The position numbers and the translations under genes were made by a program. Shown one piece after another: positions 1 through 50,580 of a DNA stretch of 64,000 nt. The stretch's first letter is position 1. Each line of letters starts with the position of its first letter. The stretch is from a phage. Location of the stretch: sequence record PZ445431.1. One strand, written 5' to 3'. The notes under the pieces are model-generated. The model worked only from the letters and a program-made list of their open reading frames with translations. It did no database searches and was not told the origin of the DNA.

Positions 1-419
1 TGAGCGTGAATGATTTCATCACGAGGGATACCAGCACGTTCCAGAAGGTCATCAACGTTAGTAGTGAAGTTCTTCACGCTATCCGCACCATAACGCTGGA
101 ACCATTCTGCAATTCGCAGATGGGCAATGTTAGGCTCAACAGTCTGTAATTCCTGACGACGCATGTTGTAGAACTCATGAGTCTTGAGATACAGATCGTT
201 ACCATCTTTATCAATGCCAGGGAAACGAGCACTGAAGTAGTTAGGATCATCTTCACCACAGAAGCGACGGAAGCCAGCTTCAAAGTTAGGCAAGCTACAT
301 ACTTCCTCTAGATCGTACTCATCCCACAAGGATTTCCCACTAGCAGTATCAGTACGGAAAGCACGAACACCACTATCTACACTCAAACCTGCACCACTAA
401 CAACGATTAGTCTACGCAT
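1..419 (-). CDS. Sir2-like NAD-dependent deacetylase/ADP-ribosyltransferase family protein, partial (C-terminus beyond window start)
   Basis: Minus-strand frame from ATG at 419-417 translates MRRLIVVSGAGLSVDSGVRAFRTD..., i.e. the sirtuin N-terminal GAG[IL]S..SG..FR motif; stop of upstream gene overlaps the ATG (TAATG); not in ORF track because truncated. Confidence 0.55.
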   Translation of the reverse strand, partial: MRRLIVVSGAGLSVDSGVRAFRTDTASGKSLWDEYDLEEVCSLPNFEAGFRRFCGEDDPNYFSARFPGIDKDGNDLYLKTHEFYNMRRQELQTVEPNIAHLRIAEWFQRYGADSVKNFTTNVDDLLERAGIPRDEIIHA

Positions 420-14007: not shown

Positions 14008-14036
14008 TTGCTTTCAGCTCCAAAATTCTGTATAAT
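14008..14036 (+). promoter_or_regulatory. T5-type early promoter
   Basis: TTGCTT 14008-14013, TATAAT 14031-14036, then leader CATAAATTTGAGAGAACAA. Confidence 0.7.
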
Positions 14037-16176: not shown

Positions 16177-16205
16177 TTGCTTAAAGCCTTAAATTTCTGT
16201 ATAAT
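16177..16205 (+). promoter_or_regulatory. T5-type early promoter
   Basis: TTGCTT 16177-16182, TATAAT 16200-16205. Confidence 0.7.
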
Positions 16206-19549: not shown

Positions 19550-19572
19550 TAGTTACACGTAATCTTCGAACC

Positions 19573-19612
19573 AAGCCCGCGTTTCCTCTGAGAGCGCGGG
19601 CTTTTCTGTATT
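19573..19612 (+). terminator. rho-independent terminator
   Basis: AAGCCCGCG ... CGCGGGCTT stem followed by TTCTGTATTT. Confidence 0.7.
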
Positions 19613-19752
19613 TAAGGCAAAAGAAAAGCCCATAAGTTATTCAACTAAGGTCTTTAGTATTTAATTCTTTAGAATCATATACTATTATTTCAGCAACAAC
19701 GTGCTGCCCTTAAGTGCCCTGCGATTTTCCTCTAAAAAGTTAAAAAATTCGA

Positions 19753-19781
19753 TTGCTTGAATGCTAAATTCTCTGTATAAT
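19753..19781 (+). promoter_or_regulatory. T5-type early promoter upstream of nadR-like gene
   Basis: TTGCTT 19753-19758, TATAAT 19776-19781. Confidence 0.7.
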
Positions 19782-19811
19782 ATATTTATAAATTTGAGAG
19801 AGGAATCAAAT

Positions 19812-20867
19812 ATGATTAAGACTGGTCTAGTAATTGGTAAGTTCGCACCATTAACACGTGGTCATATTAACCTAATAAACACAGCAGCAACTATGTGTGA
19901 ACGAGTTATAGTTGTAGTTAGTCATGATAATCGCTGGCTGGATAAACAAAACACACGTGATCAGGAAGTCTTACAGTTAAAGAACCGACTTCGTTGGTTA
20001 GAACAAACTTACGCGGATATTGAGCACATTTCGGTAGAGTACATTATTGAAGATGATATTCCTGAATATCCGAATGGTTGGCCGGAATATGCTAGAATAC
20101 TTAATGAAAATTATGGACATTTGCCTGAGATCACCATTTTCTCTAGCGAACTAGACTATGATGCAGAATATAAGAAATATCTGCCGAAGTTTGGTCATTA
20201 TATTGTAGATTCTGATCGGACTCGTGTTCCAATCTCAGCTACAATGATTCGTAATGATCTTATGAAGTATTGGGAGTTTCTTCCTAGCGTAGTTCGTAAA
20301 GATTACGTGCGTAAGGTTGTAATCATTGGGACTGAAAGCTCGGGAAAGACTACTTTAACAAAATACCTTGCGAAGCTATACAACACTTCGTGGGTAGAAG
20401 AATATGGTCGAACGTATTGTGAAGTTGATCTAGTTGGTAACGAAAATCTGCTTACCAGCGAAGATTATAGTAAAATTGCGTTCAGACACAAAGAGCTAGA
20501 GTTTGAAGCAGAACGTACTGCAAATAAGATCATGTTTGTGGATACAAATGCTTTTATTACTGAGTTCTACCACAGACTTTATGAACATAGTAAGAATCCT
20601 GTGGTTACAGCAATTGCAAAAGAAGAACATTATGATTTAGTAATTGTTCTAGCGCCTACTGTCAAGTGGGTAGATGATGGTTTACGTATTAACTCCGATC
20701 GTTCAATTACTTCTGAACTGTTCGAGCAGATGAAGAAAGAATTTCCAAATCAGTTCCCTGAAGGGCGTACTGTTTACATCGACTCTCCGGACTACAAAGT
20801 TCGTATGGACGAAGCAGTAAACGCAGTAGACTGGCTGATTCATCACTTTAACGTTGGAGAGTTTTAA
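19812..20867 (+). CDS. nadR: NadR-like bifunctional NMN adenylyltransferase / ribosylnicotinamide kinase (no HTH domain)
   Basis: GKFAPLTRGHINLI nucleotidyltransferase motif and VVIIGTESSGKTTLTKYLAKLYNTSWVEEYGR P-loop closely matching NadR; start ATG 19812 after conserved leader GAGAGAGGAATCAAAT. Confidence 0.8.
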   Translation: MIKTGLVIGKFAPLTRGHINLINTAATMCERVIVVVSHDNRWLDKQNTRDQEVLQLKNRLRWLEQTYADIEHISVEYIIEDDIPEYPNGWPEYARILNENYGHLPEITIFSSELDYDAEYKKYLPKFGHYIVDSDRTRVPISATMIRNDLMKYWEFLPSVVRKDYVRKVVIIGTESSGKTTLTKYLAKLYNTSWVEEYGRTYCEVDLVGNENLLTSEDYSKIAFRHKELEFEAERTANKIMFVDTNAFITEFYHRLYEHSKNPVVTAIAKEEHYDLVIVLAPTVKWVDDGLRINSDRSITSELFEQMKKEFPNQFPEGRTVYIDSPDYKVRMDEAVNAVDWLIHHFNVGEF

Positions 20868-20868
20868 T

Positions 20869-21546
20869 ATGACTAACTATCTCGTAAATGACTTTAAAAA
20901 CTGGAAACCTCTGGAATATCTGTGGCTGTTCATAGCGGTTGTCTTCATTAGTTTAGCAAACTATAATGGTACAGCTCTAGATTGGGCTACTGCAATAACC
21001 AATGTGGTTTGTGTTATTCTGGTTGCAAAAGGACGTGTTTCCAACTATATTTGGGGCTTAGTGGGTGTTCTTACATATGGTATTACAGCTTTAAACGCAG
21101 ATCTTTATGGTAACGCTGCACTAAACCTGCTATACTACGTTCCTATGCAGTTTTATGGAATGTACTTATGGCATAAAAATAAGCCAAGTAATCTGCCGGA
21201 TGTTCCAACTAAGGTTCTGACTAAAGCCCAAGCTCTGCTGACTCTAGGGATTCTAGCAGTAGCCACGTTAGGGTATGGTAGTTTCTTAGCTACTACGGCT
21301 GATCCATTTCCAATGTTGGATGCATTTACTGCGGTAGGTAGTGTGATCGCTATGTGGCTTATGGTTAAGCAGTATGCCGAGCAGTGGCTGATCTGGATTG
21401 CTATTAACATTGGTACTGTGTACATTTGGCTTGTAACTGCTCAATCTACAGGTGCATCTTATGCAATCCTAGCAATGTGGCTAGTATTCTTAGGTAACTC
21501 TATTATGGGAGCCTATAAAGGATACTTTGTACGCGTTAACAAATAA
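20869..21546 (+). CDS. pnuC: PnuC-family nicotinamide riboside transporter
   Basis: Multi-TM 226 aa protein with Trp-rich PnuC-like helices, immediately downstream of the nadR-like gene. Confidence 0.7.
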   Translation: MTNYLVNDFKNWKPLEYLWLFIAVVFISLANYNGTALDWATAITNVVCVILVAKGRVSNYIWGLVGVLTYGITALNADLYGNAALNLLYYVPMQFYGMYLWHKNKPSNLPDVPTKVLTKAQALLTLGILAVATLGYGSFLATTADPFPMLDAFTAVGSVIAMWLMVKQYAEQWLIWIAINIGTVYIWLVTAQSTGASYAILAMWLVFLGNSIMGAYKGYFVRVNK

Positions 21547-21553
21547 AGTAGTT

Positions 21554-21580
21554 ATAGCCCTCGCTTAGAGGGCTATTATA
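21554..21580 (+). terminator. rho-independent terminator
   Basis: TAGCCCTC-GCTTA-GAGGGCTA hairpin followed by TTATAC. Confidence 0.6.
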
Positions 21581-21593
21581 CAGAAATTTTCAC

Positions 21594-21622
21594 TTGCTTA
21601 ATATAGAAAATTTCTGTATAAT
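21594..21622 (+). promoter_or_regulatory. T5-type early promoter
   Basis: TTGCTT 21594-21599, TATAAT 21617-21622. Confidence 0.7.
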
Positions 21623-21652
21623 ATATTTATAAATTTGAGAGAGGAATCAAAT

Positions 21653-21949
21653 ATGAAACGCATTGTACTTGCATTGACTCTAGTATCTACTTCTGTATTT
21701 GCTGCTCCACAACAGGAACTTTGTCAAGTTCAAGTTTGTAATAAGCTAGAACGATTTACTCTAGACATTTGGTCACATATTAAAGATAATATGGGTGAAC
21801 AGTGTTTTGATATTGTTCTGCCAAAAGAACAAGCTGTTCCTGGTGCTGTTCTCAGTTCAGAATCACGTTGGTGGCAGGGTTCTTCTATCAATCCAACTAA
21901 GAAGTCAGTGACACGTATCAAACAAGTATATCAGTGCAATGTTCAGTAA
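21653..21949 (+). CDS. secreted small Cys-containing protein
   Basis: Signal peptide MKRIVLALTLVSTSVFA; four Cys; conserved promoter/leader upstream. Confidence 0.6.
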   Translation: MKRIVLALTLVSTSVFAAPQQELCQVQVCNKLERFTLDIWSHIKDNMGEQCFDIVLPKEQAVPGAVLSSESRWWQGSSINPTKKSVTRIKQVYQCNVQ

Positions 21950-21957
21950 AATTTCAC

Positions 21958-21986
21958 TTGCTTAATGCCGAAATTTTCTGTATAAT
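21958..21986 (+). promoter_or_regulatory. T5-type early promoter driving tRNA-Ser/tRNA-CAU
   Basis: TTGCTT 21958-21963, TATAAT 21981-21986; tRNA starts 15 nt downstream. Confidence 0.7.
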
Positions 21987-22000
21987 ATATTCATAATTTC

Positions 22001-24087: not shown

Positions 24088-24366
24088 ATGCTGATGCATC
24101 CTGAAAACTTCTTTATTTACTGTGCGGATAAGTCACTGAAACGCAGAATTAACAAAGTCTATCATTATCGTGCTAGTCAACAGCCTTATGTTTATGCTTT
24201 TGATGGAGATTACATCCCACTAGAACAGTTGGCCTGTGATTACATGGTTTTGAAGAACTTTGACGAGACAAAGATCTCAAGCGTTCATAATCGACAGAAC
24301 CCGTTAACGTGGAAATATAAGAAGAAAAAGAAAGGCATCAAATTCTTAAAAAATGTAGTTGCTTAA
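24088..24366 (+). CDS. hypothetical protein (about 92 aa)
   Basis: GAAGGAG RBS then ATG; 3' end overlaps the next promoter. Confidence 0.5.
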   Translation: MLMHPENFFIYCADKSLKRRINKVYHYRASQQPYVYAFDGDYIPLEQLACDYMVLKNFDETKISSVHNRQNPLTWKYKKKKKGIKFLKNVVA

Positions 24367-24387
24367 CCGCTTAAAGTTCTGTATAAT
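24359..24387 (+). promoter_or_regulatory. T5-type early promoter embedded in the 3' end of a CDS
   Basis: TTGCTT 24359-24364, TATAAT 24382-24387. Confidence 0.65.
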
Positions 24388-25926: not shown

Positions 25927-26000
25927 ACATCCATAGCTCAATTGGTTAGAGCTACCGCCTCTTAAGCGGTAGGTTCTAGGTTCAAGTCCTTCATTGGAGA
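25927..26000 (+). tRNA. tRNA-Lys-like (anticodon CUU); acceptor/T stems imperfect
   Basis: Canonical D-arm GCTCAATTGGTTAGAGC and anticodon arm ACCGC-CTCTTAA-GCGGT; acceptor pairing poor by eye. Confidence 0.4.
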
Positions 26001-27615: not shown

Positions 27616-27688
27616 GGGCGAATAGTGTCAGCGGGAGCACACCAGACTTGCAAGTCTGGTAGGGAGGGTTCGAGTCTCTCTTTGTCCA
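27616..27688 (+). tRNA. tRNA-like gene with non-canonical anticodon loop (6 or 8 nt around TTGCAA)
   Basis: Acceptor GGGCGAA/TTTGTCC (two G-U), D-stem GTGT/ACAC, stem CCAGAC/GTCTGG, T-arm GAGGG-TTCGAGT-CTCTC, encoded CCA. Confidence 0.45.
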
Positions 27689-27706
27689 CCAAATTAAAAA
27701 GAATGC

Positions 27707-49979: not shown

Positions 49980-50580
49980 TGTCGGATTTGCACATTACAT
50001 TTCTAGAAATTTATGGTCGGATTTGCACATTGATAGGAGTCTCCAAAGTTTTTAGGAACACTGAAAATAGCAGCATTATTTCGGGCCGAAGGCCCATATT
50101 TGCCTGAGTTTTTAGAGCCACAGGAATTTTCACTTGTCAAGCGATTTTGCCCCATTTTGCTAATAAAATTTCGCTTTATCTCCCCTAATCTCAATTCTAG
50201 CCAAAACATCCCGCATTATCCTCAAAAATGCAGCAAACCGGTGCTAAAGCACCATCACCGCTGCTCCTTCCGTAGTTCCTCCCAAAATCTCATCGGATTC
50301 GCACTTCTCCCCAAACTCACACAATCACACACCCTCTCATCGAAGTCACAAAAATCTTGTCGGATTTGCACACCTTAACACTTGTCGGATTTGCACATAC
50401 TCTAGTAAACCCAGCTGGATTGCATCGCAGTTGCGGATTGCTGGAGTTTTTAGGAAAATTCATTGTCGGATTTGCACACTATAAAAATTTTTCGGGTAGG
50501 ATTTGCACATTACCAAAAATTGTCGGATTCGCACATACACGCCAGCACGTAACCCATGGAGCAAATGTCGGATTTGCACA
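49980..50580. repeat. iteron array: about 9 direct copies of TGTCGGATTTGCACA (minor variants)
   Basis: Copies at about 49980, 50016, 50291, 50359, 50383, 50464, 50496, 50521, 50566, all same orientation, irregular spacing. Confidence 0.9.

Follow-up and report, generated by a model that had tools for sequence, protein, structure and literature searches.

The question raised by this locus is whether two adjacent phage genes, read as a NadR-like enzyme and a PnuC-type transporter, form a pathway for rebuilding NAD+, how such a pathway would be expressed during infection, and what it does for the phage that carries it. Bacteria commonly defend themselves against phages by depleting NAD+, and the pathways with which phages rebuild it show how this defence is escaped; such pathways can also be built into therapeutic phages. 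The DNA analyzed here, a stretch of 64,000 nucleotides from a phage (sequence record PZ445431.1), is referred to as the window, and its features are collected in Table 1.

Identity of the locus and published work on NARP3

Over the 2.2-kb region that includes both genes, the window matches Escherichia phage TrudiRoth (MZ501109.1; BASEL Bas30), a T5-like phage of the Demerecviridae, Markadamsvirinae, Epseptimavirus, at 100% identity. Over the 32 kb compared, positions 1-31030 of the window correspond to the TrudiRoth record from position 49992 onward at 100% identity, except for a 979-bp gap in the tRNA cluster. Both open reading frames sit exactly where the preliminary description of this DNA had placed them, and their coordinates are those of bas30_0086 and bas30_0087 in the public record. 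The products, Bas30_86 and Bas30_87, are the pair named NARP3 by Yan et al. (Sci Adv 2026; PMC13464706, cited throughout from part of its text). The window locus and the NARP3 of TrudiRoth (PDB 9X6H/9X6F) are the same locus, with identical DNA, CDS boundaries and protein sequence and no differences in the two genes. All 25 residues named in PMC13464706 occupy the stated positions in the window translations, 22 of them in the NadR-like protein.

Table 1. Coordinates, in the window, of the features discussed in the text
Feature	Position	Strand	Basis
bas30_0086: NadR-like NMN adenylyltransferase and ribosylnicotinamide kinase, 351 aa, without HTH	19812-20867	+	ORF, profiles, motifs, PDB identity
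bas30_0087: PnuC-type nicotinamide riboside transporter, 225 aa from ATG	20869-21546	+	ORF, profiles, 4QTN match
Intrinsic terminator (predicted)	19573-19603	+	12-bp stem with 7 GC pairs, then TTCTGTATTT; -20.7 kcal/mol, z = -4.3
Sigma-70 promoter (predicted), TTGCTT-N17-TATAAT	19753-19781	+	TG directly before the -10, A-rich tract upstream
Stable hairpin directly 3' of pnuC	21554-21576 (approx.)	+	9-bp GC-rich stem, -18 kcal/mol, z = -4.5
SPFH/Band 7 domain protein, 314 aa	18605-19549	+	PF01145, E=2.9e-19; N-terminal hydrophobic segment
98-aa protein	21653-21949	+	Sec-type signal peptide (MKRIVLALTLVSTSVFA followed by AP), four cysteines
Sir2-like protein bas30_0054, N-terminal part, cut by the window edge	1-419	-	Pfam SIR2, E=6e-12

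The idea that such pairs rebuild NAD+ dates from Osterman et al. (bioRxiv 2024, 10.1101/2024.02.11.579819), who reported that phage NadR genes lie mostly in an operon with PnuC, considered NadR-PnuC conceivably another (third) NAD+ reconstitution pathway, and showed the BASEL phages with the operon in supplementary Figure 3B. According to PMC13464706, co-expression of the two NARP3 genes raises sensitivity to T7 and lambda about 10^3- to 10^4-fold in Sir2-HerA strains, either Bas30_86 or Bas30_87 alone is insufficient for rescue, and point mutants abolish function. The plasmid-borne genes restore NAD+/NADH pools and also counter DSR1 (PMC13464706). Rescue depends on nicotinamide riboside (NR), with an EC50 of 3.6-5.6 uM, and the NR, which NADase cleavage does not yield, must be exogenous (PMC13464706), so that the benefit of the operon depends on the environment.

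These results support the functional part of the preliminary description, which had proposed that the pair imports NR, converts it to NAD and might counter NAD-depleting defence systems. For the same two proteins, import is supported by the published NR binding and NR-dependent rescue, and conversion is borne out by the NR to NMN to NAD+ reaction (PMC13464706). The counter-defence role holds in trans against Sir2-HerA and DSR1; every demonstration of it in PMC13464706 used genes on plasmids and phages other than TrudiRoth (T7, lambda and Klebsiella phages). The earlier reading of the gene pair is thus correct but already known: the proposal dates from 2024 and the demonstration, with structures, from 2026. 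The significance of the NARP3 locus has already been realised by that published work, and the present analysis adds no new biology; its small additions are the one-position difference from the T5 promoter P15a, the other genes in the corresponding T5 slot, and the pairing of the genes in five distant lineages.

Among known systems, the pair resembles NARP1 (Adps and Namat) and NARP2 (Nampt and NMNAT/Nudix, e.g. KVP40 NadV/NatV), which are likewise two-gene phage operons that rebuild NAD+ against its depletion. The substrates differ: NARP1 uses ADPR and nicotinamide and NARP2 uses nicotinamide and PRPP, whereas the system in the window draws on imported NR and includes a transporter.

Promoter and operon anatomy

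The preliminary description had placed a strong early promoter ahead of the pair. A generic promoter scan gave a shifted 9/12 match at this site, and its total count was not above that of shuffles; the promoter was resolved by a specific search for the T5-type pattern combined with alignment to the promoters annotated in T5. The window contains 20 exact sites of the pattern TTGCTW-N17-TATAAT, where chance would give 0.04, and 18 of the 20 are on the + strand; sites other than that of nadR include 14008-14036, 16177-16205, 21594-21622, 21958-21986 and 24359-24387. Across the window, the T5-type promoters carry A-rich upstream tracts and a conserved ATAAATTGA(G/T)GAG leader. The aligned 75 nt of the nadR promoter, including its leader GAGAGAGGAATC, differ at 1 position from the annotated P15a of T5. 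On this pattern and alignment, the sites are assigned to the T5 early-region promoter family and the nadR promoter is a homologue of P15a, which bears out the proposed early promoter at the sequence level.

The position of this promoter also bears on where the enzyme begins. A longer NadR ORF starting at ATG 19761 (368 aa, with a possible extra N-terminal segment) was rejected, since that ATG, the sole one in frame upstream, falls between the -35 and -10 hexamers. This fixes the nadR start at 19812, where the ATG is served by the ribosome-binding site GAGAGAGG, and argues against a longer N-terminus. At the other end of the gene, the TAA stop occupies 20865-20867, the pnuC ATG follows 1 nt later on the same strand, and a GGAG Shine-Dalgarno sequence for pnuC lies inside the 3' end of nadR, about 9 nt 5' of ATG 20869; this junction suggests translational coupling. 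The mechanical ORF list had pnuC start at TTG 20854, a candidate rejected because ATG 20869 has the Shine-Dalgarno sequence and matches the public annotation.

Hairpins flank the two genes. The upstream intrinsic terminator is predicted to end the SPFH-gene unit and to insulate the nadR-pnuC unit. The hairpin directly after pnuC escaped the terminator scan owing to its poor T-run, and its stability emerged on folding; it probably marks where the bicistronic unit ends and, its U-tract being weak, is a putative terminator. Beyond it lies another copy of the promoter, which drives the next small gene downstream; this promoter and its 5'UTR (21594-21655) are nearly identical to those of nadR. Because it has its own promoter, a 1-nt junction with an internal Shine-Dalgarno sequence, and flanking hairpins, nadR-pnuC is a self-contained bicistronic unit. 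The arrangement is that of NARP3: on a phage genome, a NadR-like gene lies next to a PnuC-like gene in the same orientation, and the two have a promoter of their own. The parts of PMC13464706 cited here make no mention of native promoters, expression timing, the family or genus of the phage, or its T5-like nature.

A variable slot in T5-like phages

Comparison of window positions 19550-22000 with T5 (NC_005859.1, 37086-40738) revealed a slot, bounded by the SPFH-like gene and tRNA-Ser(GCU), whose gene content varies among T5-like phages. In T5, where its borders are T5.080 (SPFH-like) and tRNA-Ser3, the slot holds T5.076-T5.079, with P15a driving T5.076, a Toprim-like gene annotated 'DNA primase', and with T5.077-T5.079 in the opposite orientation. 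In TrudiRoth it holds nadR, pnuC and the gene for a small secreted protein. Since T5 has other genes in the syntenic slot, nadR-pnuC is best described as an accessory cassette in a variable slot.

The neighbors on either side deserve a brief description. The SPFH gene, directly 5' of the operon, forms its own terminated transcription unit, and its syntenic T5 counterpart of similar length, T5.080, is annotated 'lipoprotein'. The 98-aa protein downstream of pnuC has no match in Pfam or NCBIfam; it lacks a lipobox cysteine, yet RefSeq homologues are named 'lipoprotein'.

Distribution of the pair among phages

A tblastn search covered 50,697 phage records, of which 792 have NadR-like genes and 742 have PnuC-like genes. 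Counts by genus are nearly equal for the two (NadR-like/PnuC-like: Vibrio 355/345, Salmonella 174/174, Klebsiella 47/47, Bacillus 24/24, Lactobacillus 18/18, Prevotella 15/15), this equality being one of per-genus totals and not of record-by-record co-occurrence. Physical linkage was inspected in five distant lineages, namely the Aeromonas Shenzhenvirus, Bacillus phage pW2, the Enterococcus Schiekvirus, a Vibrio phage and the Klebsiella Mydovirus, and the two genes were adjacent or close in 5/5. They lie 1.5 kb apart in the Klebsiella Mydovirus, and the Enterococcus Schiekvirus has two PnuC genes. The distribution found here extends beyond the 124 hits, most of them enterobacterial, that PMC13464706 counts, and it agrees with the phylogeny given there and with Osterman et al.

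A related observation concerns Enterococcus phage vB_EfaM_A2 (Herelleviridae; locus L006, 1-467 and 3630-4373), where two PnuC-like genes surround a NadR-like gene, one directly downstream of it and the other about 2 kb upstream, beside a glutaredoxin gene.

Proposed role in the native phage

We propose that the locus is the NARP3 NAD+ reconstitution operon of TrudiRoth, which has a promoter of the T5 early-region type read by the host RNA polymerase and which counters NADase defence, and we put the probability of this reading at roughly 0.9. Under it, host RNA polymerase would transcribe the bicistronic nadR-pnuC message from the early-region promoter, and Bas30_87 in the membrane would import extracellular NR. 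In the cytoplasm, the P-loop kinase domain of the HTH-less Bas30_86 would phosphorylate NR to NMN with ATP, and its nucleotidyltransferase domain would adenylylate NMN to NAD+, again with ATP. The NAD+ pool would be refilled in this way when NADase defences such as Sir2-HerA or DSR1 deplete it, and phage replication could proceed. For the native phage, we infer both a need for the operon in anti-defence and early expression from the promoter at 19753-19781.

A different emphasis, compatible with counter-defence, is that the main native role is metabolic support, with the operon supplying NAD+ to NAD-consuming phage enzymes and to the surge in nucleotide metabolism, in hosts with and without an NADase system alike. 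TrudiRoth encodes both subunits, A and B, of an NAD-dependent DNA ligase (bas30_0038/0039, which lie outside the window) as well as the Sir2-like protein bas30_0054, and since the phage thereby has NAD consumers of its own, supplying them is a possible additional or main role of the operon. The location of the operon, between nucleotide-metabolism genes and the tRNA cluster and behind a promoter of the same family, points the same way, and the cited parts of PMC13464706 report no defence phenotype for the native phage. Against a metabolic main role stand the absence of nadR and pnuC from the syntenic slot of T5, which makes the pair accessory and not core among T5-like phages, and the sufficiency of the pair in trans to overcome Sir2-HerA and DSR1 (PMC13464706). 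Weighing these points, we consider metabolic support as the main role possible, if rather unlikely.

A narrower form of the same idea would make the operon, in the native phage, an accessory cassette swapped in behind P15a and chiefly feeding the ligase and the Sir2-like protein where NR is plentiful, as in the gut, with the effect against Sir2-HerA a consequence of overexpression; we regard this as doubtful. The reading as a NARP3 operon directed against NADase defence is retained in what follows, where the two proteins are taken in turn.

The PnuC-type transporter

The neighbor of nadR had been described as a PnuC-type transporter, and the profile evidence confirms it. The protein scores 148.2 bits against PF04973 in Pfam (cut-off 27.3) and 121.3 bits against the PnuC equivalog model TIGR01528 in NCBIfam (cut-off 42.45), and it matches Neisseria mucosa PnuC (4QTN) over residues 14-220 with E=6e-32. 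Its score against NF011926, the model of the enterobacterial PnuC subfamily, is 67, far under the cut-off of 335.

The Pnu family has members for other vitamin substrates. The low NF011926 score and this breadth of the family would suit a transporter from a Pnu branch with another substrate, of thiamine or riboflavin type, next to NadR by incident alone. The published data point elsewhere: Bas30_87 is described as a trimeric PnuC-like protein that binds NR with a Kd of about 665 nM, binding is abolished by each of N45A, Q94A and N180A, and rescue follows the dose of NR (PMC13464706). The three residues N45, Q94 and N180 are present in the window protein. With the equivalog cut-off passed and the pairing with NadR-like genes kept across distant phages as well, another substrate is already disfavoured, and we hold it to be very improbable.

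For NR transport itself, the evidence on Bas30_87 in the cited parts of PMC13464706 consists of NR binding and NR-dependent rescue. Like its homologue 4QTN, the phage protein is reported as a trimer that binds NR; it differs from the N. mucosa protein in being phage-encoded and in its proposed, docking-based set of NR-contact residues, three instead of four (PMC13464706).

The NadR-like enzyme

For the first gene, the claim to be examined was that of a NadR-like enzyme (NMNAT and RNK) without an HTH domain, and Pfam, the span of the NF005988 match and the motifs all agree with it. In Pfam, the CTP_transf_like nucleotidyltransferase domain PF01467 covers residues 7-147 and the P-loop domain PF13521 (AAA_28) residues 168-314 (E=8.5e-32), and no HTH family was detected. 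The NCBIfam model of trifunctional NadR, NF005988, is matched with 253.2 bits (cut-off 201), the alignment running over profile positions 65-407 of 411 from residue 3 of the protein, which leaves no room for an N-terminal HTH. The protein accordingly falls outside the trifunctional NadR class (repressor plus enzyme), the N-terminal HTH part being missing, and with 270.7 it stays under the cut-off of 341.15 of TIGR01526, the narrower equivalog-domain model of the NadR NMNAT.

The catalytic motifs are intact in both domains. In the NMNAT domain they are GKFAPLTRGH at residues 9-18, of the (H/T)xGH type, and ISATMIR at residues 141-147, of the ISxTxxR type; in the kinase domain they are the Walker A motif GTESSGKT at residues 173-180 and IMFVD (Walker B) at residues 240-244. 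Among the solved structures searched, PDB 9X6F and 9X6H have sequences identical to the window protein across all 351 residues, and Haemophilus influenzae NadR (1LW7, E=7.6e-55) and Escherichia coli NadR (8X7F, E=7.5e-51) match it as well. The apo and NAD+-bound crystal structures of Bas30_86 comprise two domains only, NMNAT (residues 1-166) and RNK (residues 167-351); the protein binds NR, NMN and NAD+, with a Kd for NR of 34 nM, and in vitro with ATP it converts NR to NMN and NMN to NAD+, as followed by HPLC and MS (PMC13464706).

The reading of the first gene as a NadR transcriptional regulator of host or phage NAD genes, for which the name 'NadR transcriptional regulator' given to a homologue in some GenBank records could be cited, is already refuted by the predicted domain content and carries next to no weight, given that only 8 residues precede the nucleotidyltransferase motif, that the trifunctional profile is entered at position 65, that Pfam finds no HTH family, that the sole in-frame upstream ATG falls within the promoter, and that the crystal structure has just the two domains.

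Compared with bacterial NadR (the trifunctional E. coli/Salmonella protein, H. influenzae 1LW7 and E. coli 8X7F), the phage enzyme keeps the NMNAT-RNK order and the (H/T)xGH, ISxTxxR and Walker A/B motifs. Unlike the trifunctional bacterial proteins, it has no N-terminal HTH repressor domain. It is also reported to be monomeric in solution, a property listed as a difference from bacterial NadR, and its gene shares an operon with pnuC, in contrast to E. coli, where the two genes are unlinked (PMC13464706).

Variation in the tRNA cluster

The one interruption of the identity between the window and TrudiRoth lies at window positions 25934-25990, opposite TrudiRoth 75925-76904, where the window is without a 979-bp segment. 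In TrudiRoth this segment is bracketed by two direct copies of tRNA-Lys(CTT) that share a 57-bp overlap; along with the second of these copies, it contains tRNA-Gly and three small ORFs. The difference looks like a repeat-mediated deletion or duplication variant. Elsewhere in the window, ARAGORN called a tRNA at 27616-27691 (+) with a 4-base anticodon (tgca) and left its identity undetermined; the TrudiRoth record gives it as tRNA-Ala(UGC).
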